From the NCBI GenBank assembly GCA_026706595.1, contig JAPOYL010000009.1:22687-86686 (forward strand): DNA of 64,000 nucleotides, written 5' to 3'. Each line of letters opens with the position of its first letter. The stretch's first letter is position 1. Positions 3,001-64,000 of the stretch are shown in pieces. The notes below the pieces were generated by a model. It did no database searches and was not told the DNA's origin. It saw nothing but the letters and a program-made list of their open reading frames with translations. A program made the position numbers and the translations under genes. The stretch comes from Gammaproteobacteria bacterium (GTDB lineage: Bacteria > Pseudomonadota > Gammaproteobacteria > UBA4575).

Positions 3001-4684
3001 CTACCAGCGTGGCGGGTTCATTGAGGGTATCGATCACTTCGATGCACGCTTTTTCGGCATCCGGCCGATTGAGGCACACAGCATGGACCCACAGCAACGG
3101 ATGCTGCTCGAGACGAGCTGGCAGGCACTCGAGGATGCCGGCATTGATCCTGAGCAGTTGCGGGGCAGTCCCACCGGGGTCTATGCCGGAATTGCTTCCA
3201 GCGAATACCGGGACCTGATGATGGACAGTGGTGGCCCCAGCTATCTCGGCACGGCAGGGAGCATGGCGGTCGGGCGTGTCTCGTTTTGCCTGGGCCTGGA
3301 GGGACCGGCCATGCCGGTCATGCTCAACTGCGCTTCATCTTTGGTCGCCATACATCATGCCGTAGCGAGCTTGCTCCAGGGCGAGGTGGACCTGGCGCTG
3401 GCCGGCGGAGTCAACGCGATCCTTTCGAGTGGGCTGACCCGTGAACTTGCCGAACTCGGAATGCTGTCGCGTGATGGACGATGCAAGACGTTCAATGCCT
3501 CGGCGGACGGGTTTGTACGCAGTGAAGGTTGTGGAATGATCGTCCTCAAGCGTCTTGATGAGGCGCAGGCAGATTGCGATCGAATCTGGGGCGTGATCCG
3601 CGGCTCGGCCATCAACCACAGCGGGGCGAGTGCAGGGCCTACAGTGCCGACGGGTCCGACGAAGGAACGGGTCATCGAGGAGGCGCTTGCCGGAGCATGT
3701 ATCTCACCGCACGAAGTGGACTATCTCGAGGCGCACGGAGGCGGTTCGGAGCTGGGTGATTCCATTGAAGTCAATGCTTCTGCGAGGGTCTACGGGCGCG
3801 AGCGGGAGGCGGACGATCCCCTGTTGATCGGTTCGGTGAAGACGAACCTCGGACATCTGGAATCCGCTGCCGGCATTGCGGCGCTCATCAAGACGGTGCT
3901 GGCAATGGATCGGCACAGGATTCCGCAACACCTGCATTTTCGTGACCCGAACCCGCACACGGACTGGGAGCAGTTGCCGGTGAAAGTGGTTTCTGAGGCC
4001 ATGGACTGGCCTCGGCATGAGGGTCGACCTGCGCGTGCAGGGGTCAGCGCATTCGGAATCTCCGGAACCAATGCCCACGTGGTGGTCGAAGGGTATCAGG
4101 CGTCGGAGGATGCCTCGTACCCAGAGCATCCGCGATCTTCTCCCGCAGGAAATGCACAACTGGTGACGTTGCCCCCGTCGGATTCATCCCGGGAGACCCC
4201 CTCTGAAATACCTGCAACCGACTTGCGAAAGACCCGCCTGTTGCCGCTTTCTGGCAAGTCTGAAGGCGTTCTCAGGGAACTGGCCGAAGCGTATCTTGCC
4301 TGGCTCGATGCACACTCGAAGGAGCTTTCGGATGATGACAGTGCATCCGGCCCCCTGCTTTCGGATATGGCATGGACGGCCAGTACGGGACGCGCCCACT
4401 TCGCTCATCGGGCCGGTGTCCTGTTCAGTGACGTGGCCTCGCTCCGGGCTCAACTTCAGTCACTTGCCAGGGGCACTGGCAAAGAGGTGCCCGCAGCGGC
4501 AGCGAAGGAAAACTCCCATGATGTGCAGACGGATGAAGTGCCTTCCTTCATGCTGGAAGTTGCAGAAGCCTACGAGGCAGGGCAAGCGGTTTCGCTCGCA
4601 GGTCTTTTTGAAGGCGAGATGCGAAGGCGAATTTCTGTGCCGGACTATCCATTCGAACGGCAGAGGTTTTGGGTCAAGGCCTAA
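2..4684 (+). CDS. Type I polyketide synthase, 5'-truncated at the window edge. Domains: psiKR/ER (~713-1661), KR (~1706-2276), ACP (~2540-2770), KS (~2846-4110), then an AT-less post-KS linker to the stop.
   Basis: The reading frame is open from nt 2. The ER region is quinone-oxidoreductase-like (GxGxxG in 'HAGAGGVGLAAIQ'). The KR Rossmann motif is 'TGGLGGIGIAVADWL'. The ACP Ser motif is 'LGMDSLMAVELRNRL'. The KS has Cys in 'NCASSLVAIHHA', 'EAHGGGSELGD' and 'KTNLGHLESAAG'. The C-terminus ends with the 'YPFERQRFW' linker motif. No acyltransferase GHSxG domain follows. Confidence 0.85.
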   Translation, partial: TAKLPDRGVIVARGPARVHEAPGMWVLMADEGGTAAHLAHELADRNQTVVLAGPGFDKAAEFKVCGPGVHEVYVDAMMRESWQQLVEHLPGDLPFSGVVHFAGLDGHGMQASTAEIAGDVERNGASALALVQGVADSVREPDKGIWLITRGAQILERERGGELAGAILWGFGKAVDREAAHLRPQMIDLDPQPEASLPDLANELLYPDAENHIAYRLGRRQVARLVRFADGPARLALPKTPDWVLAPDPGGTFDRPCVQSLAARALEPREVRVEVDAAGLNFWDVFRSLGFIEEGLLGREMCGRVIEAGSEVSSAIVGKRVIGLGFGAFGPQMVTREELVSVAPSGYSVTELATVPSAYVSAALSYELSGLQAGERVLIHAGAGGVGLAAIQLAQAAGAEVLATASMPKQAYLRSLGVVHLFDSRTTAFGEQILEVTGGAGVDVVLNSLTSEGFIDASLSCLRQGGRFVELARRDILSPEEMAAVRPDVGYDILELDVLKKTDPAWVGRVLDDVTRQLASGEIGPIVHSRWPLAEAGAALRFMRSARHLGKIVVTAPPLATGRLRQDATYLVTGGLGGIGIAVADWLVGQGAGTLVLNGRRSPDAEAEAAIRELRERGASIHVEIADVTDASAMDRMMSHIDQELPPLAGVIHSVGVLSDGALTNQSWERFERVLGPKILGAWHLHRSTLDRDLDFFILFSSRVGVMGNPGQANHAAANAFLDQLAGHRRALGLAGQAIAWGAWSEIGEAAEQKDRIERQRSALGGRWFTPQQGLKALERLVRQDVTTSVVMSMDWSVFEKAVSARPPFLEEMLVTDDEAEAGAVASSADVMARLQQTPASERGRLLESYLQGEVQAVLRLPSAPEPAVGFFDLGMDSLMAVELRNRLNRAFSDEYTASNTVVFDYPDIISLARHLSEELGEVKGTPAPQVQPAPVSVSEDASIEGGIAIIGMACRFPGARNLAEFWQVLDEGRETVSDGREDTGLWGGVLGDPAIRDAGYQRGGFIEGIDHFDARFFGIRPIEAHSMDPQQRMLLETSWQALEDAGIDPEQLRGSPTGVYAGIASSEYRDLMMDSGGPSYLGTAGSMAVGRVSFCLGLEGPAMPVMLNCASSLVAIHHAVASLLQGEVDLALAGGVNAILSSGLTRELAELGMLSRDGRCKTFNASADGFVRSEGCGMIVLKRLDEAQADCDRIWGVIRGSAINHSGASAGPTVPTGPTKERVIEEALAGACISPHEVDYLEAHGGGSELGDSIEVNASARVYGREREADDPLLIGSVKTNLGHLESAAGIAALIKTVLAMDRHRIPQHLHFRDPNPHTDWEQLPVKVVSEAMDWPRHEGRPARAGVSAFGISGTNAHVVVEGYQASEDASYPEHPRSSPAGNAQLVTLPPSDSSRETPSEIPATDLRKTRLLPLSGKSEGVLRELAEAYLAWLDAHSKELSDDDSASGPLLSDMAWTASTGRAHFAHRAGVLFSDVASLRAQLQSLARGTGKEVPAAAAKENSHDVQTDEVPSFMLEVAEAYEAGQAVSLAGLFEGEMRRRISVPDYPFERQRFWVKA

Positions 4685-16568: not shown

Positions 16569-17432
16569 TCAGCTAGCGACTGCAGCCTTAAGCGCCTGGA
16601 TGGCGTTGCTTTCCAACTGGCGTATGCGCTCTGCCGAAACCTTGTACTTGGCAGCCAGGTCCTGCAGGGTGGAGCGCTTCTCACTCAACCAGCGCTGCGT
16701 GATGATGTCCCGGCTACGCTCATCCAGCACGGTCAGTGCGGCTTGCAGTTGCCGTACCTGATGGGATTCCCAGTCCTCATGTTCAATCTGCAGTTCAGGG
16801 TTGTCTTCTTCATGGCTTAGGTAGGCCGCCGGTGCAAAGTGACCGGGCTCATCCTTGTGCTCATCATGATCCTGGTCAAAACCGAGGTCGTGACTGCTGA
16901 GCCGCTTTTCCATCTCCACCACTTCACTGCGCTTGACGCCCAGTTCCTTGGCTACCGTATCCACCTCATCCTGATTCAGCCAGGCCAGGCGTTTCTTGGA
17001 GTTGCGCAAGTTGAAAAACAGCTTGCGCTGGGCCTTGGTGGTTGCAACTTTGACAATGCGCCAGTTGCGCAGTACGAACTCATGAATCTCGGCACGAATC
17101 CAGTGCACCGCAAACGAGACCAGGCGCACACCCTTGTGCGGGTTGAAGCGGTTGACGGCCTTCATCAGCCCGACATTGCCTTCCTGGACCAGATCCGCAA
17201 GCGGCAGACCATATCCCAGGTAGCCGCGCGCCACATGAATCACGAACCGCAGGTTGTGAATGATCAGAGTGCGTGCCGCATCCAGATCGTTATCTTCATA
17301 CAGGCGCAGCGCCAGGGCATGCTCCTCTTCCATGCTCAGCACCGGAATCTGCAGCGTCGAGGCGATGTAGCCGTCCAGGTTGGCGGTGGAAATCGCCGTT
17401 GAAGCTTGCAAGGGTTGTATGGTGGTCGTCAC
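16569..17432 (-). CDS. rpoH: RNA polymerase sigma-32 (heat-shock sigma factor)
   Basis: RpoH box 'QRKLFFNLR', region 2 'LIIHNLRFVIHVARGY', and a GTG start preceded by a GGAGAA RBS. Confidence 0.93.
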   Translation of the reverse strand: MTTTIQPLQASTAISTANLDGYIASTLQIPVLSMEEEHALALRLYEDNDLDAARTLIIHNLRFVIHVARGYLGYGLPLADLVQEGNVGLMKAVNRFNPHKGVRLVSFAVHWIRAEIHEFVLRNWRIVKVATTKAQRKLFFNLRNSKKRLAWLNQDEVDTVAKELGVKRSEVVEMEKRLSSHDLGFDQDHDEHKDEPGHFAPAAYLSHEEDNPELQIEHEDWESHQVRQLQAALTVLDERSRDIITQRWLSEKRSTLQDLAAKYKVSAERIRQLESNAIQALKAAVAS

Positions 17433-17486
17433 AGTTCTCTGGTTCTCCCCAGTTGGAGCGTTTGTTCAATCTTCATCAGGGCTATA

Positions 17487-17513
17487 TTAGCACTCTTTTA
17501 TATAGAGTGCTAA
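17487..17513. promoter_or_regulatory. CIRCE operator (HrcA-binding inverted repeat) upstream of rpoH
   Basis: An exact TTAGCACTC-N9-GAGTGCTAA, 55 bp upstream of the rpoH GTG. Confidence 0.8.
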
Positions 17514-17516
17514 TAT

Positions 17517-17524
17517 TTTTAGTT
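17517..17524. repeat. Target-site duplication, left copy (TTTTAGTT)
   Basis: An identical octamer lies immediately outside both inverted repeats (the other copy is at 21113..21120). Confidence 0.75.
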
Positions 17525-17550
17525 GGGGCTTATATACGTAAGTTACCGGA
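17525..17550. repeat. Left terminal inverted repeat GGGGCTTATATACGTAAGTTACCGGA
   Basis: Matches the reverse complement of 21087..21112. Subterminal partial copies occur at 17735..17745 and 17786..17795. Confidence 0.75.
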
Positions 17551-17935
17551 TTCTGAGCAGTTTTCCCTACCTGAACTCGGGTTCCATGCTGTCGCCCAGG
17601 ACGCGCAGGGCAAACGGTTCCGAATTGGCGCACCCGCCATGATCGGCGAGGTCAGCCTGTAGACCGCGAACAAGTACTGCCATCGTATCCGGACCCTCGG
17701 TGCCTCATTAAAAAATTTTATCAATAATTTTTTGTTTATAAGCTCTGGGTATTCTTGGGGCATTTGGAAAAAATACTAAGATTTCAAGCTTATATGATTT
17801 TGCCCACTTCTTGTGTTCGGAGTCTGGCATCCACACAATCCATTGTGTACAATCACTGCCATACGCATTGCGTAATCGACCAACAAAAAGCGAGGAAAAC
17901 GTCATGGAGCAAATGATTCAAAGTGAGGTGGAAAA

Positions 17936-18044
17936 GCGCCGGTAGCTAAAGAGGCATAAGCACATACTGGCGTGGCGTTCAATTCCCGTCAGGCATGGTC
18001 GTAGCACTAGCTGCGTGCCGGTTCGAGTCCGGTCCGGCGCACCA
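17936..18044 (+). other. tRNA/tmRNA 3'-end-like element (T-arm GGTTCGAGTCC, 7-nt acceptor strand, discriminator A, CCA); not a complete tRNA
   Basis: The T-stem-loop 18017..18033 and acceptor 3' strand 18034..18040 could pair with GCGCCGG at 17936..17942. The 109-nt span cannot be folded into a canonical cloverleaf. Confidence 0.3.
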
Positions 18045-18077
18045 TCTTACAAAAATTCAAATCTGAACGAAGACACA

Positions 18078-18218
18078 TCAAGTCTTCTTTCTTTTCCCAG
18101 CAGCAAAGATCGCCTTTGCTACATATTCAGGACTTTCATCAATCTTCAGAACACGGGTTTTCGGTCTGCCACGTGGCAGTTTTTCCTGTGCAGTCTTCTT
18201 TGGATTAGTCTTACCCAT
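18078..18218 (-). CDS. AT-hook micro-protein (46 aa), paralog 1
   Basis: '...LPRGRPKTRVLKIDESPEYVAKAIFAAGKRKKT'. It shares the RGRP...SPE(Y/N)(V/I)AKAI(F/M) core with 18774..18965. Confidence 0.5.
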   Translation of the reverse strand: MGKTNPKKTAQEKLPRGRPKTRVLKIDESPEYVAKAIFAAGKRKKT

Positions 18219-18320
18219 TAAAAAGAAGTATAGGGTTTTAGTCTGTGTTAGTAAATTGGCTAATTGATTGGCATCGCATGATTATCTATGCTTGTCTATA
18301 GTTTCCTACTAGGACATAAA

Positions 18321-18515
18321 ATGGATAAAAGTAATTTAAATAATCTAGATGGTGAGTTGAACGCTCTAGCTGATTTCATAGTCAACTTTGTCGGAGTCTC
18401 AGGTCTAAAAATTCAAATGATCCAAAAGCTCAAATCTGGCTTAACGAAAGATGTTAAAGGTACAGACTATGAAGCTAGGTTGCAGTATTTCATAAAACAA
18501 TTAGAAAAACTCTGA
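18321..18515 (+). CDS. Hypothetical small helical protein
   Basis: An ORF in AT-rich cargo DNA with no recognisable motif. Confidence 0.25.
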   Translation: MDKSNLNNLDGELNALADFIVNFVGVSGLKIQMIQKLKSGLTKDVKGTDYEARLQYFIKQLEKL

Positions 18516-18773
18516 CGCATCTTATTTGGGAAATATAAAGATTAGGGGTTTATATACTTGTTTACCTATCGGACTAATGCTTCTGGGATCTTTCCCACAC
18601 AACTCCTTCTTTTCTACAAATCCTTTTAATGTCTCTTCCTTTCATCTGTAAAAAATGCACTCCTTCCTTTTGTTTTTAATATTGCCAATAATTCGCTATT
18701 AAGTTATTTCCATAGTGATTACCACTTCAACTGTATCTTCTGGACTATAAGTTTCTTCCACAAGTTTCTCCTT

Positions 18774-18965
18774 TCAATCCTCTTTCAGATAATCCCAGTC
18801 TTTCTTCGGAGACCCCTTCATAATTGCCTTGGCAATGTTCTCCGGGCTGTCTGGCACTTTAGGAGGCATTTTCTTGGTCACAGGCCGACCCCGCTTGTGA
18901 GCCTTTACCTTCAATGTCTTTTTGCCTTTAACCTGCTTCATCTCTATACTTTCCTCTAACGACAT
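18774..18965 (-). CDS. AT-hook micro-protein (63 aa), paralog 2
   Basis: '...KAHKRGRPVTKKMPPKVPDSPENIAKAIMKG...'. It is Lys-rich. Confidence 0.55.
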   Translation of the reverse strand: MSLEESIEMKQVKGKKTLKVKAHKRGRPVTKKMPPKVPDSPENIAKAIMKGSPKKDWDYLKED

Positions 18966-19124
18966 TCATGTAGATACCCTGGTCGGGTTATCTGCTTAAT
19001 ACAATAGCCATTTACGCATCAGGGTAGCTCCCTGATGTTTGGTAAAGAGGCGGAACCTCTCCGTACTTCTACGTGGATGTCGTATGACCCGGCACCATGC
19101 ACGTAACAAAAAGGAGAGGTGGTC

Positions 19125-19424
19125 ATGCGTTCTTTCAATATTCTCGTCATTTCAATTCTCATAAGCGGGTGTGCTACTAGCAATTATTTCGTTGCCACTG
19201 GCAGTCGCGCGGATGGAACGGTTGAGGTGGCCTGCAACTACGACATGTTTAATATTTGCAAACACGATGGGAGTCCCAATGGATCCAGCGCAGCCGGTCA
19301 AGCTTGCCGAAGTTGGGGATATGACGGTGCCCGCTCTTTTGGAGGTTATACCAACCAACCTAGATATGACGGTACAGGCCAGGTAAGAATCCTGTACCAG
19401 TGTTATGGTGATCCTGAGAAGTAA
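19125..19424 (+). CDS. Small lipoprotein (Cys-rich, about 100 aa)
   Basis: Signal peptide plus lipobox 'LISGC', with an AAGGAGAG RBS 8 nt upstream of the ATG. Confidence 0.6.
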   Translation: MRSFNILVISILISGCATSNYFVATGSRADGTVEVACNYDMFNICKHDGSPNGSSAAGQACRSWGYDGARSFGGYTNQPRYDGTGQVRILYQCYGDPEK

Positions 19425-19434
19425 GGGGAGAAAC

Positions 19435-19608
19435 ATGGAATACATCATCCCTTACCTTTTTGCCTTTGGCCTTTGTGGTTTGCTGGCTTTTGCAATACAG
19501 GGAGAAAATTCTGAAGGGAAAGGATTAGCCTTTGCCTTGGGATTTCTGTTTGGACCTTTAGGAATTCTCATTGTGTTGATCACGAAACTAGCAAAGACAA
19601 AGAAATAA
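19435..19608 (+). CDS. Two-helix mini membrane protein (57 aa)
   Basis: 'MEYIIPYLFAFGLCGLLAFAIQG...GFLFGPLGILIVLITKLAKTKK'. An AGGGGAG RBS follows immediately after the lipoprotein stop. Confidence 0.5.
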   Translation: MEYIIPYLFAFGLCGLLAFAIQGENSEGKGLAFALGFLFGPLGILIVLITKLAKTKK

Positions 19609-19657
19609 AAACTCATGCCACTCTGATAACATAGCCAAAATTAATTAGGAAATCTTG

Positions 19658-19987
19658 ATGACAGAAAATCCCTCAAAACCCCAATCAGTTCGAGCTCAAA
19701 AGCATGCTGCTTCTCCAGAACATTCTGAAAGTCGACTTCGACATGTGAAGGGATTTGATTTGTATCAGGCAGACAATACAGAGTCCTATGTCCTAGATTT
19801 TCACTTTCATACTTTACAGAATTATCCTGCAGACGAAATGACAACCCTTGTGGGAGATCATTTTCCTCAAATTTTGGAAAGGAAGGATCTTCAGAAGCTT
19901 GCCTATAAAATTCTAAAGACATTGCGAGAAGAGCTTCAAGCTCCTGTCGAGAAGTGGAACGATGATATTGATTCCTTGAAGATTTAA
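19658..19987 (+). CDS. Hypothetical protein (about 109 aa). A fully overlapping 133-aa antisense ORF (19641..20042) is an alternative.
   Basis: An AGGAAA RBS lies 7 nt upstream of the ATG. The call is ambiguous between strands. Confidence 0.35.
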   Translation: MTENPSKPQSVRAQKHAASPEHSESRLRHVKGFDLYQADNTESYVLDFHFHTLQNYPADEMTTLVGDHFPQILERKDLQKLAYKILKTLREELQAPVEKWNDDIDSLKI

Positions 19988-20022
19988 AGGATTCAAAATT
20001 AATAATATTGTTGTTATTCACC

Positions 20023-20958
20023 CTAAGACACCAATTCCTCATACTTCAACCGCTTGCCTTCCATGCGCTTGGCAACAAACGCCATCTGGCGGATTGTATC
20101 CAGCTCCCTGATATTGAAGCGTCCTGCGAACTCCTGCACATAGCGATTCAGGTGCTTTTTGCTGATGTGATGATACGTGCCGTGGTACCCACGCTTGAGT
20201 AGTGCCCAGAAGGACTCGATGCCGTTGGTGTGGGCCATGCCCCTCACAAACTCACTGGTAGAATGTCGGACGGCCCTGTGGTCATAGCGTTTGTATAGTT
20301 GCATGTAAGCCCGATTATCGTCTGTGATCAGTGTGGCCTCTGGGTCCATGTTCTCGGCAATAAACTTGTGCAGCGTGTACGCCGTGGTGTCTTCGGCAGT
20401 CTTGGCCCGAATCTCTTTACTGTCTCTGCACTTCATACCGACCACAATTGCCTTGTCCGTAGCTCCTCGTCCCTTGAGAGTCTTGCGCTTGGCATTGTGC
20501 ATGTTCTTTCGCTTTCCACCCATGTAGGTCTCATCCACTTCCACAGTGCCTCGCAGAAGCCCATCGCCTTCATCAAAGGCCTCCCGAATGCGTTGTAGCA
20601 TGTACCAGGCTGACTTCTGGGTTATTCCGAGTTCCCGACTCAGCTTCATGCTGGAAATGCCCTTGAGATTAGTGGTCGCCATGTAGATCGCGATCACCCA
20701 GTGTTGGAGCTTGATCTTGGAACCTTCCATGACCGACCCTTTTTTGACGCTGAAGAATTGCCGGCAATCACGGCAGCGATAACGCATGGTCTTGTGGGTC
20801 GTATGGGTGTGGTTGACAGACCCGCAATCAGGACAGACCGGACCATCAGGCCAACGCTGCTCCTCAAGCCATTGCTCAGCAGTCCTGTCATCAGGGAACA
20901 TCTGAAGCAGCTCAATGATTGTAATCCCTTTCCGGTGTGACTTGCCTGGACCTGCCAT
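20023..20958 (-). CDS. IS1595-family (ISXO2-like) DDE transposase
   Basis: An N-terminal zinc ribbon 'PDGPVCPDCGS...YRCRDCRQFFSV', then 'KGISSMKLSRELGITQKSAWYMLQRIR' and a DDE domain (311 aa). Confidence 0.85.
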   Translation of the reverse strand: MAGPGKSHRKGITIIELLQMFPDDRTAEQWLEEQRWPDGPVCPDCGSVNHTHTTHKTMRYRCRDCRQFFSVKKGSVMEGSKIKLQHWVIAIYMATTNLKGISSMKLSRELGITQKSAWYMLQRIREAFDEGDGLLRGTVEVDETYMGGKRKNMHNAKRKTLKGRGATDKAIVVGMKCRDSKEIRAKTAEDTTAYTLHKFIAENMDPEATLITDDNRAYMQLYKRYDHRAVRHSTSEFVRGMAHTNGIESFWALLKRGYHGTYHHISKKHLNRYVQEFAGRFNIRELDTIRQMAFVAKRMEGKRLKYEELVS

Positions 20959-21086
20959 TCCTACATCTTGATCAGTTGATTATTCATGGTAACTATTCTA
21001 CCGGAAAACAGTGCGAAAGTAAAGGGTTTACCGATAGAAATATATATTACGATAGGTATATCCTATGTAGGCTGTTAGAAAAGACT

Positions 21087-21112
21087 CTCGGTAACTTTTG
21101 TATATAAGCTCC
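21087..21112. repeat. Right terminal inverted repeat (reverse complement GGAGCTTATATACAAAAGTTACCGAG)
   Basis: See the left inverted repeat. Confidence 0.75.
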
Positions 21113-21120
21113 TTTTAGTT
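21113..21120. repeat. Target-site duplication, right copy (TTTTAGTT)
   Basis: See the left copy. Confidence 0.75.
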
Positions 21121-21260
21121 GTTTAAATTCAGTAGCTTATGTTGTCAATCCCGTGCATTTACCGGTGGTATGCAGGAGATTGATGGGGATCGGCAGCCAC
21201 CGGATTCGGGGGGTCAAACACCGAGGTTCTGGGCAATTGCGTTCGTGCTGGTCCGAACGC

Positions 21261-22229
21261 TCAGCTGGGTTCAATCCGCACGATATGGCGTCCGACGGCC
21301 AGCCATGAACCCAGCAGTCCCAGCACGATGCTGGTCGCGATCAGGGCCAGGCCCTGCCTGAGATCCGGAAAAATCAGCTCGAAATTGCTGTTGTACAGAC
21401 CAATCAGGTGCTGTGCGGGCGCTTCGATGACGTACAGCACGAGCAGCACCAGCAACAGCGCCAGGCTCCCCCCCAGCAGGCCATACCACATACCGCCATA
21501 CAGGAAAGGCCTTCGCACGAAGCGGTTGGTCGCGCCGATCAGCTTGGCGACCTCGATTTCCTCGCGTCGATTCTCGATGTCCAGGCGGATGCTGTTGCCG
21601 ACCACCAGTAGCACGGAAATAGCCAGCGTGATGCCCAGTATCGTGATCGCACGGTGCACCACCTCGGTGATGGCCTGCAGTCGCTGCAGCCATTGCAGGT
21701 CGAGTTGTACATGCTCGACCTGCGGGTAGGTGCCAAGATCCTGCACCAGCCGGTCCAGTTGACCGGCCTGCTTGGCTTGCTCAAACGGGATCAGGGTCAG
21801 GGTGGGCGGCAGTGGATTTTCCTCCAGCCCTTCGATCAGGTATTCGAGCCTGCTGAATTTTCGAAACTCCGTCAGGGCCTGTTGGGCAGAAACGTACTTG
21901 ATGTTCTCGATCTCCTTGAGTTCGGCCAGGCGGGTGCGAAGTGCCTCGATCTCGGCTTCGCTGCTGTTCACGTTCAAGAACAGCGTGATTTGTCCGGAGT
22001 CGTCCCATTTCTCGGTAACCGCCTGCAGGTTGTCCAACAACAGGTACATGCAGGCCGGCAGCGCCAGGGCCACGGCGATCATCAGGATGGTCAGCGTCGA
22101 CGCGAACGGGTGGCGGTACAGCTTGCCGAGGCTGAACACCAGGCTACGCAGATGCTCACGCACCAGAGCGCGAAAGCGTGTCAGGGAGTTGGGTCGGTTC
22201 GGGATTGGTCTGCGTGTGGATGCCTGCAT
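21261..22229 (-). CDS. ftsX: Cell-division ABC transporter permease FtsX
   Basis: Four TM segments and a periplasmic loop, downstream of ftsE. Confidence 0.85.
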   Translation of the reverse strand: MQASTRRPIPNRPNSLTRFRALVREHLRSLVFSLGKLYRHPFASTLTILMIAVALALPACMYLLLDNLQAVTEKWDDSGQITLFLNVNSSEAEIEALRTRLAELKEIENIKYVSAQQALTEFRKFSRLEYLIEGLEENPLPPTLTLIPFEQAKQAGQLDRLVQDLGTYPQVEHVQLDLQWLQRLQAITEVVHRAITILGITLAISVLLVVGNSIRLDIENRREEIEVAKLIGATNRFVRRPFLYGGMWYGLLGGSLALLLVLLVLYVIEAPAQHLIGLYNSNFELIFPDLRQGLALIATSIVLGLLGSWLAVGRHIVRIEPS

Positions 22230-56372: not shown

Positions 56373-56399
56373 TTAGCACTCCCCACAAAAGAGTGCTAA
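56373..56399. promoter_or_regulatory. CIRCE operator (HrcA site) of groESL
   Basis: An exact TTAGCACTC-N9-GAGTGCTAA, 79 bp upstream of the groES ATG. Confidence 0.9.
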
Positions 56400-57245: not shown

Positions 57246-57614
57246 ATGCAAAAACCACTCGATCGTTCGATCCATGTTGTCTTGACCCTTGTGTTCGCTG
57301 CCAGCGTATTCACTATGACCTCCGCCGTTTTCGCGGATGAAAGCGTTGTGGAAAATGGCAAGAAAGTAGCCTTTGACCGCAAAGCGGGAAACTGCCTGTC
57401 CTGTCACTTGATTGAGGGCGGCGAAGCTCCCGGAAATCTGGGGCCGCCCCTGGTAGCGATGAAAGCCCGTTTCCCAGACAGGCAAAGGCTTCGAGACATC
57501 ATCTGGGACATCACCACATCGCGCCCAGAAGCCCTGATGCCGCCATTTGGAAGGTACAAGATTATCAGCGAACAGGACATCGATGACATTGTCGAGTATC
57601 TGTACACGCTATGA
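57246..57614 (+). CDS. soxX: Monohaem cytochrome c SoxX
   Basis: A signal peptide and a single 'CLSCH' haem site, first gene of the sox operon. Confidence 0.75.
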   Translation: MQKPLDRSIHVVLTLVFAASVFTMTSAVFADESVVENGKKVAFDRKAGNCLSCHLIEGGEAPGNLGPPLVAMKARFPDRQRLRDIIWDITTSRPEALMPPFGRYKIISEQDIDDIVEYLYTL

Positions 57615-57654
57615 CTATGTATATTGCGTTTTGAGATTTTACGAGGTCGACATT

Positions 57655-58104
57655 ATGAGCCTTACACGAAGAACAGTAATCAAGAATACGGCGGTTGCTG
57701 GTTTGGCAGCCATGGTTGGATTACCCAAACTATTGCTTGCCGCCTGGCCCGAGAATGCCTTCAAGGCTAAATCCATGGAGGACGCCCTGACTGCACTGCT
57801 GGGTACAACTGAATCGGAACAAGGTGATATTGTAATCAAGGCGCCCGAAATTGCTGAGAATGGTGCCGTGGTGCCTATCACGGTCACCAGCAATATCGCA
57901 AATACGGAGTCCATTTCCATTATCGTGCCGCATAACCCCCAGCCGCTGGTTGCAAGTTTTGACCTGAAAGACAGTGAGCCGTTTGTGTCGGTACGCATCA
58001 AGATGGCAAAAACATCTGACATTGTGGCTTTGGTGAAATCAGGCGACCAGTTGTTCAAGACCGCGAAGGAAGTCAAGGTGACCATTGGTGGGTGCGGCGG
58101 TTAA
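57655..58104 (+). CDS. soxY: Sulfur-carrier protein SoxY
   Basis: Tat signal 'TRRTVIK' and a C-terminal 'VTIGGCGG'. Confidence 0.9.
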   Translation: MSLTRRTVIKNTAVAGLAAMVGLPKLLLAAWPENAFKAKSMEDALTALLGTTESEQGDIVIKAPEIAENGAVVPITVTSNIANTESISIIVPHNPQPLVASFDLKDSEPFVSVRIKMAKTSDIVALVKSGDQLFKTAKEVKVTIGGCGG

Positions 58105-58128
58105 CCCATAGACAGAAGGTAAGTTGAT

Positions 58129-58443
58129 ATGGCAGAGACGATCAAGATTCGTGCCAAGAGCACAGACGATATTGTCACAGTAAAAGTGCTTGTTACGCAC
58201 CCTATGGAAACCGGGACACGCAAGGACAGCAGGACCAACAAACTCGTCCCCGCCCATTTCATAAAAGAAATCAAAGCCGAGGCTCACGGTAAAGTAGTTT
58301 TCCATGCAAACACCGGCGCGGGCGTGGCAAGAAACCCTTACTTCGCATTCAAATTCAAGGGCGCGAGTCCTGGAGACAGCATCAAGATCAGCTGGATTGA
58401 TAATCAAGGCAACGTGGATTCGAGAGAGGCCGTAATCAAATGA
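58129..58443 (+). CDS. soxZ: SoxZ
   Basis: 'IKIRAKSTDDIVTVKVLVTHPMETG', 104 aa. Confidence 0.9.
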   Translation: MAETIKIRAKSTDDIVTVKVLVTHPMETGTRKDSRTNKLVPAHFIKEIKAEAHGKVVFHANTGAGVARNPYFAFKFKGASPGDSIKISWIDNQGNVDSREAVIK

Positions 58444-58475
58444 TGGTCACCGGTCGTTGTTTCGAGGGAGGAAGA

Positions 58476-59312
58476 ATGAAAAATGCATTGATTGCCGCTG
58501 TCCTGGTATTGGCAGGTTCGTTGTTCGTGCAAGCACTGTCAGCAAGTCCCGAGGACGATGTGAGGTTGTATCAGGACTACTTCAAGAAACGCTTTCCAAG
58601 TATCGATTTTCAAGAATTTGCAAATGGCGTATATGCAATCAGTGCCCAGCAGCGTGAAAACTGGGAGGCGATCGAAGAATTCCCGCCTTATGAGCCGTTT
58701 ATCGAACGCGGTGAGTCCATGTGGAATGCCAAGTTTTCAAACGGAAGATCCTATGCGGACTGCTTTCCGAACGGGCCGGGCTCTCAGCACTTGTATCCGC
58801 AATGGAGCAAAGAGCAAGGAAAGGTCATCACTCTAGCGCTTGCGATCAATCAATGCAGAGAGGCAAACGGAGAGCAGCCCTTGAAATACATGAAGGGGCC
58901 AATAAATGACATTTTGGCGTACATGGCCTTCGAAAGCCGTGGGCAGTTGACCAATGTGGCAATACCTGTGGATGACCCGCGTGCGCTGGAAGCGTATGAG
59001 AAAGGCAAGGAGTTCTATTTCACGCGCAGAGGGCAGTTGAATTTTTCCTGCGATCAGTGCCACTTTCCTAACTCCGGCATGAATCTGCGTTCTGATGTGT
59101 TGAGCCCGGCCGTAGGACAAACTACGGGCTGGCCGGTATACCGTTCCGGGTGGGGGGCTCTAGGAACATTGCACCGCCGCTACAGTGGTTGTCTCAAGCA
59201 GGTCCGAGCCAAACCCTTTGCCGCGCAAGGTGAGGAATATCGCAACCTGGAATACTTTCACACATACATGAGTAACGGGATTGGATTAAACGGCCCCGCT
59301 GCCCGGAAATGA
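58476..59312 (+). CDS. soxA: Dihaem cytochrome c SoxA
   Basis: A signal peptide, 'CDQCHFPNSG', and a GGGAGG RBS before the ATG at 58476. Confidence 0.8.
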   Translation: MKNALIAAVLVLAGSLFVQALSASPEDDVRLYQDYFKKRFPSIDFQEFANGVYAISAQQRENWEAIEEFPPYEPFIERGESMWNAKFSNGRSYADCFPNGPGSQHLYPQWSKEQGKVITLALAINQCREANGEQPLKYMKGPINDILAYMAFESRGQLTNVAIPVDDPRALEAYEKGKEFYFTRRGQLNFSCDQCHFPNSGMNLRSDVLSPAVGQTTGWPVYRSGWGALGTLHRRYSGCLKQVRAKPFAAQGEEYRNLEYFHTYMSNGIGLNGPAARK

Positions 59313-59367
59313 TGAATCCGTGAAGCTTGTATTCATACGGCAGGTCTAAACCAGGGGGAACCAGGCA

Positions 59368-59700
59368 ATGGGAGTACTGCTCAAATACATTTTAATTTCG
59401 ATGGCCGCCACGGGCATATTGCTGTCTGCCGGTTTACTCGCAGATGTATCGGCTTACGATGATACCGAATTTGTGAATTTGCTCAGTACGGCAAAGTCGG
59501 CACAAAAAAAAGCAAGCTCTGTAGGGGGTGAGTGGCGCGATGTCGGGAAGTTCATCAAGGAGGCAGAGCAGGCTGCGGCAGATGGAGATTTCGATCGGGC
59601 GAAAAAGCTCGCACAGAAAGCCAAAACCCAGAGCGAACTCGGATACCAGCAGGCCGTTTCGCAAAAAGGAAAAGCACCCAGCCCATCCTACCTGCGATAG
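59368..59700 (+). CDS. Small secreted protein between soxA and soxB (possibly SoxK-like)
   Basis: A signal peptide followed by a Lys/Ala-rich helical tail. The assignment rests on position only. Confidence 0.35.
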   Translation: MGVLLKYILISMAATGILLSAGLLADVSAYDDTEFVNLLSTAKSAQKKASSVGGEWRDVGKFIKEAEQAAADGDFDRAKKLAQKAKTQSELGYQQAVSQKGKAPSPSYLR

Positions 59701-59730
59701 GGCCACCCGGGTCCAGTCGTAAATCGAGCC

Positions 59731-61497
59731 GTGTACCTGACGCGCCGTCAATTCCTGTCATTATTGAATGCAGCGGCAGTAGCAGGAATATTGCCATCGT
59801 CCCGCGGCCTGAAGGCTGGCAGGTCCACCGACGTATACGAGGTTCCCAAAAAGGGCAATGTGAGGCTTCTTCACATCACGGATTGCCACGCCCAGCTACT
59901 CCCTGTTTATTTTCGTGAGCCCAGCGTCAATATCGGTGTTGGAAACGCCCGCGGCAAGGCTCCTCACCTGGTGGGCACCCACTTGCTGGACCGGTTCGAT
60001 CTGAATCCTGCCAACCGCATGGCCGTGCACGCTTTCACCTTTCTCGATTTCATTGATGCGGCAAAGAAATTTGGCAAGGTGGGGGGCTTTGCACATCTGT
60101 GCACACTGGTAAAAAAACTGAGACACGAGTTTGGTGAAGAAAACACGCTGTTGCTGGATGGCGGCGACACATGGCAGGGATCAGGGACCGCTTACTGGAC
60201 ACGCGGCAGGGACATGGTCAATGCGTGCAATCTTCTAGGTGTTGATGTGATGACGGGCCACTGGGAGTTTACTTATCACGATAAGGAGGTGATGGAGAAC
60301 ATCCAGGCGTTCAACGGTGAGTTCATCGCACAGAATGTCAAACTGACAGAAGAAGGCTTCTTTGAAGGTCAGCCCGCCCATGATGAAACTACCGGGCACA
60401 TATTCAAACCCTATACGATCAAAGAACTGGGAGGTGTGCGCATTGCTGTCATTGGACAGGCCTTCCCCTACACACCCATCGCCAACCCTCGACGGTTCAT
60501 ACCCTATTGGTCATTTGGCATTCGGGACGATGAAATGCAGAAAGTCGTAAACGCCATACATGAGAACGAAAAGCCGGCTGCCGTGGTGCTGATTTCCCAT
60601 AACGGGATGGACGTTGACTTGAAGATGGCCAGCCGCGTAACGGGTCTGACCGCGATCTTTGGAGGCCACACGCATGACGGAGTGCCTCAGGCGGTCGAAG
60701 TGAATAATGCGAATGGCGTGACCTTGGTAACGAATGCAGGATCGAATGCAAAATTTCTGGGCGTCATGGATCTTGATATCAAAAACAACAGAGTATCCGG
60801 CTATAGCTACCGGTTGCTGCCGGTATTTTCCAACCTTCTGGATGCTGATCCGGAGATGTCAGCGTACATAGAGAAGGTCAGAAATCCCTATCTCGACCGG
60901 CTGGAGGATAAGCTGGGCGTGGCGGATTCCTTATTGTACCGGCGGGGGAATTTCAACGGTTCGTTTGACCAAGTGATCTGCGATGCCCTGATTGAGCAGC
61001 TGGACACCCAGATAGCGCTGTCACCCGGCTTTAGGTGGGGAGTATCCGTACTGCCGGGTGATGACATCACGATGGAGCACGTCCTGACACAAACCTGCAT
61101 GACTTATCCCGAAACATACACCAGCGGCATGAGCGGTGAAACCATCAAGCTCATACTCGAAGATGTGTGTGACAATTTGTTCAATCCGGACCCGTACTAT
61201 CAACAAGGGGGAGACATGGTCCGCTTGGGCGGTATGAACTATGTGTGTGACCCGACAGCTTCAGCCGGAAACCGGATCTCGGATATGACCTTGGACAGTG
61301 GAGAAAAAATAGAAGCGAACAAGACATATCAGGTAGCGGGGTGGGCGACTGTCGGGTCTAAATCTCAGGGGCCTCCAGTCTGGGACGTCGTCGCACAATA
61401 TATACGCGAACATAAAAGCATCAGGATATCCAGGCTCAACACTCCCAAACTGAAGAATCTGGGAGCCAATCCAGGCATCAGTGATTACCGGGTCTGA
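59731..61497 (+). CDS. soxB: Thiosulfohydrolase SoxB (5'-nucleotidase/metallophosphatase family)
   Basis: Tat signal 'TRRQFLSLL' and metallophosphatase motifs 'ITDCHAQ', 'GGDTWQG' and 'GGHTHD'. Confidence 0.9.
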   Translation: MYLTRRQFLSLLNAAAVAGILPSSRGLKAGRSTDVYEVPKKGNVRLLHITDCHAQLLPVYFREPSVNIGVGNARGKAPHLVGTHLLDRFDLNPANRMAVHAFTFLDFIDAAKKFGKVGGFAHLCTLVKKLRHEFGEENTLLLDGGDTWQGSGTAYWTRGRDMVNACNLLGVDVMTGHWEFTYHDKEVMENIQAFNGEFIAQNVKLTEEGFFEGQPAHDETTGHIFKPYTIKELGGVRIAVIGQAFPYTPIANPRRFIPYWSFGIRDDEMQKVVNAIHENEKPAAVVLISHNGMDVDLKMASRVTGLTAIFGGHTHDGVPQAVEVNNANGVTLVTNAGSNAKFLGVMDLDIKNNRVSGYSYRLLPVFSNLLDADPEMSAYIEKVRNPYLDRLEDKLGVADSLLYRRGNFNGSFDQVICDALIEQLDTQIALSPGFRWGVSVLPGDDITMEHVLTQTCMTYPETYTSGMSGETIKLILEDVCDNLFNPDPYYQQGGDMVRLGGMNYVCDPTASAGNRISDMTLDSGEKIEANKTYQVAGWATVGSKSQGPPVWDVVAQYIREHKSIRISRLNTPKLKNLGANPGISDYRV

Positions 61498-61634
61498 TGC
61501 AAACCCGTACTGGACGATACAGTCATGCCCGTGCCCATAGTCATCCGAGGATTGATGAAACACCTGTTGAACACAGGACAAATGTGCGACTTGTGTCTTT
61601 TTTGATATTTTAGGGAATCATATACTTAGCTTTT

Positions 61635-61970
61635 GTGAGGGTTGCGTTCATGAGTCCACACATTTTAGTACTGACGGCCTTCCCGGATATGGACATCGCG
61701 ACACGTCTAGCACAAGAAATTGTTCAGACCCGGCTTGCAGCCTGCGTTAATATCCTGCCTCAGGCCAAATCCGTGTACATGTGGCAAGGAAAGCAGTGCA
61801 TGGATTCGGAGTACATCGTGATCATGAAGACTACGGAAAGCAGGTATCAGAAGTTGCAGTCCTTTATACAAAGCCAGCATCCCTATGAACTTCCGGAGAT
61901 CATTGCGACTCCTATTACACAAGGCTTGGATGATTATCTTGACTGGATGGCAAAGAGTGTAAGCACGTGA
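61635..61970 (+). CDS. cutA: Divalent-cation tolerance protein CutA
   Basis: CutA1 fold ('LAACVNILPQAKSVYMWQGK') upstream of dsbD, as in E. coli. Confidence 0.85.
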   Translation: MRVAFMSPHILVLTAFPDMDIATRLAQEIVQTRLAACVNILPQAKSVYMWQGKQCMDSEYIVIMKTTESRYQKLQSFIQSQHPYELPEIIATPITQGLDDYLDWMAKSVST

Positions 61971-63886
61971 AGCGTCTCTACATCATTTTTTGGGTGTTGC
62001 TTGTATTTGGACACCCTGCAGCCTATGCAGAATCTACAACCCGGACTCTTGAGCAGTTCGTTTTTGGTGTGGATGAAACCGAATTCCTTCATCCTGATGA
62101 AGCCTTCCGGGTTTCAGTTCGCAGAGGTGATGCCAACACCATCGTGACCGACTGGAAGGTGGTGGACGGACACTATCTGTACAAGGACAAGATTGCAGTC
62201 GCACCCAGGGACAGGAGCGAGGCTGCACTTGGTGCTGTGCAACTGCCTCCCGGAAAGGAAATGCATGACGAATTCTTTGGTCAGGTCGTCACCATTGATC
62301 ATGATTTTGAGGCGGATGTCCCGATCCTGCAGGTCTCCGCGAACCTGCAGGCACTTGATCTTGAGGTGACCTACCAGGGATGTGCCAAAGCCGGCCTTTG
62401 CTATCCTCCCATTACCAAAACCCTACAGGTGTCCTTGGACGATGCCAGTGAGCATACCGGTCTTGCATTCGCTGGCGCCGGGTCGGGAAGTGCTCCCAAT
62501 GGCTTGTCTTCCGGCGATTCCGGTTTTCAGTCCGAGCAGGACCGCTTTGCGGCCATGCTGGCCTCCGGCAAACTCTGGTGGATCGTAGCCAGCTTTCTGG
62601 GCTTGGGACTTCTGCTCGCTTTCACGCCCTGCGTATTCCCGATGATCCCAATCCTGTCCAGCATCATTGTTGGCCAGGGAAAGCATGTTTCAACGTCAAG
62701 GGCCTTTGGGCTGTCGCTGGTCTATGTGCTGGCCATGGCAATCACCTACACAGTGGCTGGCATTGTGGTGGGTCTTTCAGGGGAAAATGTGCAGGTATGG
62801 TTTCAGAATCCATGGGTGATCAGCACGTTTGTTGGGATTCTGGTATTGCTGTCCCTGTCCATGTTTGGGCTGTACGAGCTGCAAATCCCGCAGGCGATTC
62901 AGTCCAGACTGAACGCGTACAGTTCAACCCAGCGCCAGGGCTCATACACCGGTGCCGGCGTGATGGGTTTTCTTTCCGCGTTGATTGTCGGGCCCTGTGT
63001 GAATGCTCCGCTGATCGGTACACTGATCTACATCGCTGATGTCGGAGACGCCACCATCGGTGGCCTGGCTCTTTTCGCATTGAGCATGGGGATGGGAATA
63101 CCGTTGCTGGTAGTCGGTACATCCGCTGGCAAAATCTTGCCGAAGGCAGGAACCTGGATGGCTGCTGTGAAGGCCGTCACTGGAGTATTTTTGCTGGCGC
63201 TGGCTATCTGGATGCTGGAACGCATTATTCCTACTCCCGTAGTGTTGTTGCTTTCCGGGGCCTTGCTCATTGCCTCTTCCGTATATATGGGTGCACTTGA
63301 GGCCCTTCGGGAGGGTGCTTCTGGGTGGCTCAGATTGTGGAAGGGATTTGGACTCATTGCACTGGTGTACGGAGGTATCCTGGTCATTGGTGCGGCAGCC
63401 GGAAGCCACAGCCTGCTTCATCCCCTGCAGGGTATATTTGCGCAGCGTGTTGCCACCGACGGCGCATACCCCGGCAGGGGTGCAGCGCATAGTCTCGCCT
63501 TCCGGCAGATCAAAGGCATTGAGGGGTTGGAGTCTGCCGTGCAACTGGCCGTAGCGCAGGGCCGGCCCGTGATGCTCGATTTTTATGCGGACTGGTGTAT
63601 CTCCTGCAAGGAGATGGAGGCCTTCACTTTCAGCAACGCAGGGGTGCAGGATGCATTGCAAGATTTTGTCCTGCTGCAGGCCGATGTTACCGACAACGAC
63701 GAGCAGGATCAGGCCCTGTTACAGCATTTGGGCCTGTTTGGTCCACCCGCCATTTTGTTTTATGCCCACACCGGCCAGGAAATGAAGGACTACCGTATCG
63801 TGGGGTTCATGGGAGCCTCTCGGTTCACGTCGCATATTGACCACTTCAAAAATGCAGGAACACTGGCACTTTACATGGGGAATTAA
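61967..63886 (+). CDS. dsbD: Thiol:disulfide interchange protein DsbD
   Basis: A periplasmic alpha domain 'CAKAGLCYPP', TM beta domain 'CVFPMIP...GPCVNAP' and a C-terminal thioredoxin domain 'WCISCKE'. Confidence 0.9.
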   Translation: MKRLYIIFWVLLVFGHPAAYAESTTRTLEQFVFGVDETEFLHPDEAFRVSVRRGDANTIVTDWKVVDGHYLYKDKIAVAPRDRSEAALGAVQLPPGKEMHDEFFGQVVTIDHDFEADVPILQVSANLQALDLEVTYQGCAKAGLCYPPITKTLQVSLDDASEHTGLAFAGAGSGSAPNGLSSGDSGFQSEQDRFAAMLASGKLWWIVASFLGLGLLLAFTPCVFPMIPILSSIIVGQGKHVSTSRAFGLSLVYVLAMAITYTVAGIVVGLSGENVQVWFQNPWVISTFVGILVLLSLSMFGLYELQIPQAIQSRLNAYSSTQRQGSYTGAGVMGFLSALIVGPCVNAPLIGTLIYIADVGDATIGGLALFALSMGMGIPLLVVGTSAGKILPKAGTWMAAVKAVTGVFLLALAIWMLERIIPTPVVLLLSGALLIASSVYMGALEALREGASGWLRLWKGFGLIALVYGGILVIGAAAGSHSLLHPLQGIFAQRVATDGAYPGRGAAHSLAFRQIKGIEGLESAVQLAVAQGRPVMLDFYADWCISCKEMEAFTFSNAGVQDALQDFVLLQADVTDNDEQDQALLQHLGLFGPPAILFYAHTGQEMKDYRIVGFMGASRFTSHIDHFKNAGTLALYMGN

Positions 63887-64000
63887 TACCAGGCCCAGCC
63901 ACAATACCGCATCCCCGACCAACGACAACACACACTCAGACTACAACTCCATCCCTGTTCATGTGCACGGATGCCATCGTTCAGGGAATCCCCGGATGAG

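Follow-up and report, generated by a model that had tools for sequence, protein, structure and literature searches.

In Escherichia coli, rpoH, the gene of the heat-shock sigma factor sigma-32, has a promoter, P3, that depends on RpoE (sigma-E), a sigma factor recognizing GGAACTT (PMC8103513). Control through the operator known as CIRCE (controlling inverted repeat of chaperone expression) has been predicted for the same gene in Geobacter sulfurreducens, where a perfect CIRCE lies at position -51 (Rodionov et al., 2004, PMC545781); for the beta- and gamma-proteobacteria, that study refers to Permina & Gelfand, 2003. Here we describe a stretch of 64,000 nucleotides (the window) from contig JAPOYL010000009.1 of a gammaproteobacterium (assembly GCA_026706595.1), in which rpoH is preceded by a perfect CIRCE and, 11 bp beyond it, by the end of a transposon of the IS1595 family. 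On balance, we consider it probable that a conserved module, composed of promoters and an operator for the repressor HrcA, has been cut by this transposon, and that a promoter embedded in CIRCE now drives rpoH.

Permina and Gelfand are said to have predicted HrcA/CIRCE control of rpoH in beta- and gammaproteobacteria in 2003, and work by Ueki and Lovley from 2007 is reportedly among the sources on the subject. The presence of CIRCE at rpoH was known before and our results do not overturn the current understanding of it; their value is comparative and descriptive. They suggest that control of the sigma-32 gene by HrcA is widespread and apparently ancestral in CIRCE-bearing Gammaproteobacteria, rather than a peculiarity of one genome, and that the operator overlies the promoter that depends on sigma-E in E. 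coli. Such a locus could integrate envelope stress, through sigma-E, with cytoplasmic folding stress, through HrcA and GroE.

CIRCE at rpoH in the window and in relatives

CIRCE is a 9-bp inverted repeat with the consensus TTAGCACTC-N9-GAGTGCTAA, whose arms occupy positions 1-9 and 19-27. As the first-pass annotation had stated, the window contains two exact copies, and these remain the only two when up to three mismatches are tolerated:

17487..17513, minus strand: CIRCE at rpoH, exact match to the consensus
56373..56399, minus strand: CIRCE at groES-groEL, exact match to the consensus
16569..17432, minus strand: rpoH (sigma-32), 287 aa, GTG start, from the list of open reading frames (ORFs) and TIGR02392

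The copy at rpoH is exact and non-random: shuffled sequences are expected to contain 0.02 copies, and none of 100 shuffles had at least two. Its palindrome is longer than the consensus, with 13-nt arms at 17484-17496 and 17504-17516. Counted from its nearest base to the codon's first base, it lies 55 bp from the rpoH start codon, the distance given before; the GTG start on which this count depends agrees with the nearest relative (L003), with whose ATG it aligns. The gene itself is a clear rpoH, scoring 390 bits against TIGR02392 (rpoH_proteo), an equivalog model with a cut-off of 323, carrying the Sigma70_r2 and r4 domains and showing the RpoH box QRKLFFNLR in its translation. The second copy, 79 nt in front of groES, directly adjoins a TTGACT-N16-TATTAT promoter. 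On the plus strand, 17484-17526 was flagged as terminator-like, antisense to rpoH, with the CIRCE hairpin followed by TTTTTAGTT; this flag is probably incidental to an AT-rich promoter region.

We compared the locus with the 80 genome loci, of about 8.8 kb each, whose RpoH is closest to that of the window. The closest protein comes from an uncultured gammaproteobacterial metagenome-assembled genome (L003, 80% identity), and the next one shares 68%. CIRCE, with up to three mismatches, is found in 27 of these loci and is perfect in 16 of them, always directly upstream of rpoH and nowhere else in the 80 loci. The carriers belong to Ectothiorhodospira, Thioalkalivibrio, Competibacteraceae, Woeseiaceae, Cocleimonas and other Thiotrichaceae, Chromatiales and Halioglobus; loci without CIRCE come from Pseudomonas, Halomonas and its relatives, Colwellia, Endozoicomonas and Marinobacter. 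The arrangement had first been annotated as departing from the gammaproteobacterial textbook. That description does not hold, for it is usual in CIRCE-bearing lineages and was predicted earlier for G. sulfurreducens rpoH (PMC545781).

Across the 27 loci the arms are invariant, with about 2 bits at each position, spacer positions 13-18 fall below 0.5 bit, and positions 10-12 are partly kept as TAA. Invariant arms around a variable spacer at 13-18 are the signature of a protein-binding operator, which bears out the operator role first proposed for the element. Judged by this pattern, 17487-17513 is a genuine HrcA operator for rpoH, HrcA being its predicted ligand.

Several other CIRCE-like elements were encountered. 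In L064 (3906-3964) two tandem palindromes, with three mismatches each, lie upstream of rpoH, and GGAACTT precedes the first of them. A search with CIRCE plus its spacer returned five loci, all from unrelated organisms: a groES (L083), an hrcA (L086), an rpoH-like gene (L087) and two others. The L087 contig (about 640-760), from a metagenome, has the identical 9-nt spacer within TTGACA-N17-TATTAT-N3-CIRCE before its rpoH-like gene. L086 (about 3200-3456) has a CIRCE, again with the identical 9-nt spacer, before an hrcA-like gene whose N-terminal part reads ...QPVGSRALS.

Promoter elements around the operator

A profile of the 27 CIRCE-bearing loci, anchored on CIRCE, reveals conservation on both sides of the operator. 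Upstream, GGGAACT is kept at -16 to -10, and GAAC or GAAAC begins at -14 to -16 in 26 of the 27, the exception being L064 with its tandem operators. These relatives carry a sigma-E-type -35 element, GGAACTT, 15-16 nt upstream of CIRCE. Inside the operator, spacer positions 10-12 are TAA in 20-22 of the 27 loci; together with T8 and C9 of the left arm, the sequence reads TCTAA, at 16-17 nt from GGAACTT. The two elements combine into the pattern of an RpoE promoter. This pattern, GGAACTT-N16/17-TCnnA, is present in 40 of the 80 rpoH loci, relatives without CIRCE included, and E. coli MG1655 has GAACTT-N16-TCTGA upstream of rpoH. Downstream, on the 3' side of the right arm, position 29 is A in 23 of the 27 loci and position 30 is T in all of them, and the mirror positions upstream of CIRCE show no conservation. 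The right arm followed by nAT reads TGcTAAnAT, a canonical extended -10 element, and the left arm provides a -35-like hexamer, TTAGCA or TTGGCA, 18 nt upstream. In the few CIRCEs compared that do not belong to rpoH, the T at position 30 is absent: the groES copy of the window has TAC and the hrcA copy of L086 has ATA. The corresponding positions in the window are:

17502..17506, minus strand: position of the sigma-E-type -10, TCTAT where relatives have TCTAA, shared between the left CIRCE arm and the spacer
17484..17492, minus strand: extended -10-like TGcTAATAT, made of the right arm plus 3 nt, with the -35-like TTAGCA at 17508-17513, 18 nt upstream

In our reading of these motifs, from which the sigma factors are assigned, one HrcA operator would cover two overlapping promoters, one of sigma-E type and one of sigma-70 type. 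The putative module would consist of a sigma-E-type promoter with its -35 at GGAACTT and its -10, TCTAA, reaching across the end of the left arm, as the counterpart of E. coli rpoH P3; of the CIRCE operator; and of the extended -10 TGcTAAnAT contributed by the right arm, served by the left-arm TTAGCA as -35-like hexamer. By binding to CIRCE, HrcA would block access to both promoters, and the synthesis of sigma-32 would come under a repression titrated by the chaperone GroE. It is a possibility that CIRCE at rpoH acts as a self-contained sigma-70 promoter-operator, TTAGCA-N18-TGcTAAnAT, throughout CIRCE-bearing Gammaproteobacteria.

The transposon and its insertion site

The element next to the operator is a transposon with cargo, delimited by inverted repeats and a target-site duplication:

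17525..21112, minus strand: IS1595-family transposon with cargo, 3588 bp, recognized by its inverted repeats, 8-bp duplication, transposase and low GC
17525-17548 and 21089-21112: inverted repeats of the transposon, 24 nt, 21/24 identical (88% complementary)
17517..17524, no strand: target-site duplication TTTTAGTT, rpoH-proximal copy, adjoining the inverted repeat
21113..21120, no strand: target-site duplication TTTTAGTT, ftsX-proximal copy, identical to 17517-17524 and adjoining the inverted repeat
20023..20958, minus strand: IS1595-family DDE transposase, 311 aa, with an N-terminal zinc ribbon (PF12762, PF12760, NF033547)
21120..21148, minus strand: displaced upstream promoter DNA, with TTGACA at 21143-21148, N17 and TAAACA at 21120-21125
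21261..22229, minus strand: ftsX, last gene of ftsYEX, upstream of rpoH, with FtsX and FtsX_ECD domains

Its start at 17525 confirms the 11 bp first measured between the left end and CIRCE. The transposase matches PF12762 at 4e-41, the zinc-ribbon family PF12760 at 4e-11 and NF033547 with 194 bits (cut-off 75), and the combination of a DDE_Tnp_IS1595 domain with a zinc ribbon, inverted repeats and an 8-bp duplication places the element in the IS1595 family. It is low in GC (33-54%) compared with its flanks (about 54-61%). The genes run ftsY-ftsE-ftsX-[element]-rpoH, an order that becomes that of E. coli MG1655 once the element is removed; ftsX is the ancestral neighbor of rpoH. A second assembly of the same sequencing run (L002) has an identical junction of inverted repeat, duplication and CIRCE, and the source scaffold spans 150 kb. 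An assembly chimera at the junction was rejected because this independent assembly has the identical junction.

The reconstructed pre-insertion site reads, in the orientation of rpoH, ...TTGACA-acataagctactgaatt-TAAAC-AACTAAAA-ATA-TTAGCACTCTAT... The duplicated 8 bp, AACTAAAA in this orientation, are AT-rich and lie at -11 to -4 relative to CIRCE. At the place of the relatives' GAAC, the core of the sigma-E-type -35, the window has AAAC (21121-21124, reconstructed -15 to -12). The nearest relative, L003, has GAAAC there and shares TCTAT as -10 with the window. The P3-like pattern of the relatives is thus not found in the window, where the reconstruction gives TAAACAA-N16-TCTAT, and the position of the -35 is now occupied by inverted-repeat DNA, AAGCCCC. 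The transposon therefore entered the spacer of the sigma-E-type promoter, separating its -35 position from its -10, at an AT-rich 8-bp target 4-11 nt upstream of CIRCE. Since the element sits in the spacer between -35 and -10/CIRCE, all the upstream promoter elements are severed, TTGACA included; the old degenerate -35, the TTGACA hexamer and the DNA on the ftsX side are now 3.6 kb distant. This loss of contiguity, like the boundaries of the insertion and the sequence and conservation of the operator, is observed directly. The transposon offers in this way a natural dissection of the module, with the DNA upstream of -12 gone and the operator and its embedded extended -10 kept.

Some properties of the element itself deserve mention. 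In the public annotation the transposase is called from 20730 (235 aa), without the zinc ribbon that the 311-aa ORF starting at 20958 contains. The cargo at 19119-19608, on the plus strand, encodes a YecR-like lipoprotein (PF13992, 2.9e-08) followed by an overlapping hydrophobic ORF of 67 aa, and there are several further small ORFs without family match. Also inside the element, 17936-18041 on the plus strand is a tRNA-like sequence of 106 nt that scores 32.9 bits against the Rfam tRNA family (gathering score 29). The acceptor stem is complete, a D-arm, a T-arm and a discriminator followed by CCA are present, and the anticodon/variable region holds about 39 extra nt. ARAGORN called no tRNA, this sequence included. 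The sequence could be a degenerate or type-II-like cargo tRNA, or the relic of an integration site. A tRNA gene as integration target was discarded, given the ARAGORN result and a position of the Rfam match inside the element rather than at its edge.

Short copies of the ends are found within the element, one of the right end at about 17730-17746 (about 15/16 nt) and one of the left end at 18545-18557 (12/13 nt), neither with a matching duplication. They split the element into a 222-bp piece resembling a miniature inverted-repeat transposable element, an 800-bp middle part and a 2.6-kb part bearing the transposase; short as these copies are, they hint at a possible composite or nested origin. 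Comparison of the transposon with a plasmid collection gave nothing beyond one marginal 124-bp match. Exact look-ups of the transposase and of RpoH both matched only assemblies of the source sample, in each case the ENA scaffold and, for RpoH, also a Logan contig of that run.

Regarding the host, a sox cluster (cytochrome c, SoxY, SoxZ, SoxA and a 5'-nucleotidase/SoxB-like protein), followed by CutA and DsbD, lies at about 57500-63900 and in L088. Because of this cluster, the organism is probably a sulfur-oxidizing gammaproteobacterium.

Candidate promoters of rpoH after the insertion

A scan with a threshold of 9/12 consensus matches, a level that chance alone reaches at about 5.5 sites per 4.1 kb, gave no site on the rpoH strand. 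Sites resembling sigma-70 promoters were also scored over the 270 nt preceding rpoH, both in the present sequence and in the reconstruction. The top site is the same before and after the insertion, namely TTAGCA-N18-(TGc)TAATAT inside CIRCE, with 8/12 matches plus the TG. This CIRCE-embedded promoter is untouched by the insertion and conserved in all 27 relatives, and it is the most likely current driver of rpoH, its activity being predicted from these motifs. In the reading that we favor, rpoH would now be transcribed from this intact promoter of sigma-70 type and would stay under HrcA control, with the upstream input lost.

Several points weigh against this reading. The CIRCE-embedded promoter reaches only 8/12, below the threshold of the scan, and has an 18-nt spacer; the invariant T at position 30 could have some other purpose. 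The sigma-E-type elements are degenerate in this lineage (AAAC/TCTAT in the window, GAAAC/TCTAT in L003), and the sigma-E-type promoter may have been weak or dead before the transposon arrived. The six-frame translation of the 64-kb window contains no HrcA hallmark motif, and Pfam found neither HrcA nor an extracytoplasmic function (ECF) sigma factor or rpoE among ten candidate ORFs of the window; the two perfect CIRCEs, at rpoH and at groES, support a cognate hrcA in the genome only indirectly. Finally, the pre-insertion sequence is a reconstruction because no uninterrupted allele was found: the reconstructed empty junction, which GAGTGCTAATATTTTTAGTTGTTTAAA would mark, had no match in the metagenome collection, and the five loci recovered with CIRCE and its spacer do not inform on the state before insertion.

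One alternative, of low probability, is that the insertion rebuilt what it had destroyed, with the IS1595-family inverted repeat supplying the -35 of a regenerated ECF (sigma-E)-type promoter, placed about 15 bp further upstream than the lost one:

17519..17546, minus strand: possible ECF-like hybrid promoter, with GTAACTT at 17540-17546 (inverted repeat), N16 and ACTAA at 17519-17523 (target duplication)

Transcription would then start just upstream of CIRCE, turning CIRCE into a roadblock downstream of the start and into a leader hairpin of the mRNA. The inverted repeat does read GGTAACTT outward, 15 nt from its tip, and the other inverted repeat carries GGTAACTT too. GTAACTT matches GGAACTT at 6/7 positions, its AAC core is intact, and a CTAA motif follows at the canonical spacing of 16 nt. 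No other site in the window fits the strict pattern, and a relaxed pattern, found 20 times per 128 kb, has roughly a 1% chance of falling within 60 nt on the correct strand. However, the pattern was devised after the sequence had been seen, so these figures are only suggestive; a T replaces the G of GAAC, the base that relatives conserve best; the -10 is missing its leading T; the repeat is constrained as a transposase-binding site, so that the resemblance may be a coincidence; and no rpoE was seen in the 64-kb window. Because the pattern was chosen post hoc and the G of GAAC is missing, we regard the regeneration of GTAACTT-N16-ACTAA as unlikely. If true, it would have preserved the envelope-stress input to sigma-32 and moved the whole of CIRCE into the transcribed leader.

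Insertion sequences (ISs) are well known to create hybrid promoters through an outward -35 in their ends, and the first-pass annotation had proposed such a case here: a sigma-70 promoter combining TTACGT, from the inverted repeat, with AAATAT or TAAAAT next to CIRCE, in replacement of an ancestral promoter based on TTGACA. The idea of a promoter rewired by the transposon stands insofar as the upstream promoter DNA has been cut off. The hexamers also exist at the proposed spacing, TTACGT being present as ACGTAA at 17536-17541, 17 bp from AAATAT. However, TTACGT-N17-AAATAT matches the consensus at just 5/12 positions and its best neighbor, CTTACG-N16-AAAAAT, at 7/12, both below a threshold that chance reaches repeatedly and that no site on the rpoH strand attains. 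As for the ancestral promoter, a perfect TTGACA is there, as TGTCAA at 21143-21148, and in the reconstruction it stands 17 nt from TAAACA; this -10, however, is without the invariant T at its end, and L003 lacks a corresponding TTGACA. Comparing the upstream regions of relatives, as had been suggested, shows a shared CIRCE preceded by a sigma-E-type -35 and not by TTGACA. L003 has in addition a 247-aa gene between ftsX and rpoH (3043-3786), so that upstream of CIRCE its intergenic DNA can be aligned to the window over no more than about 20 nt. A TTGACA-based ancestor is plausible but unproven, since a sigma-70 promoter directly before CIRCE is the geometry of the groES copy in the window and of L087. 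The IS-generated hybrid sigma-70 promoter taken as a whole is, in our view, very unlikely.

Equally hard to credit is that rpoH has no dedicated promoter, so that either it depends on read-through from transposon genes, or the insertion is a deleterious or minority allele and rpoH is expressed poorly: the transposase and two cargo ORFs do lie in the orientation of rpoH, a TTTACT-N17-TAGAAT site precedes the transposase, and exact transposase and RpoH sequences each come from a single sample, but the 2.5 kb that read-through would need to traverse hold ORFs in the opposite orientation, rpoH is intact, full length and 80% identical to that of L003, and two assemblies of the sample share the junction. 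A sigma-32-type autoregulatory promoter downstream of CIRCE was rejected by inspection, as there is no CCCCAT-like -10.

The reading we favor, a CIRCE-embedded promoter left in place by the transposon, can be set against four known situations. As in other insertions that alter or create promoters, the end of an IS lies 11 bp from an operator, within a promoter spacer and at an AT-rich target; it differs from promoter-creating ISs in that there is no convincing outward sigma-70 -35, and the main demonstrable effect is the loss of upstream elements. The operator sequence and the presumed repressor are those of the classical CIRCE promoters of groESL, whose layout is found at the groES copy of the window, whereas the operator at rpoH overlaps promoter elements instead of lying just downstream of a sigma-70 -10. 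With E. coli rpoH P3 the locus has in common the gene order and, in relatives, GGAACTT-N16/17-TCnnA upstream of rpoH. In contrast, E. coli has neither CIRCE nor HrcA, and the -35 of the window is degenerate (AAAC) and split from its -10 by the insertion. A further parallel is G. sulfurreducens, with a perfect CIRCE about 50 bp upstream of the rpoH start and another at groESL in the same genome; here, however, the host is an uncultured gammaproteobacterium, probably sulfur-oxidizing, the operator overlaps what we read as a sigma-E-type promoter and an extended -10, and a transposon end lies adjacent to it.

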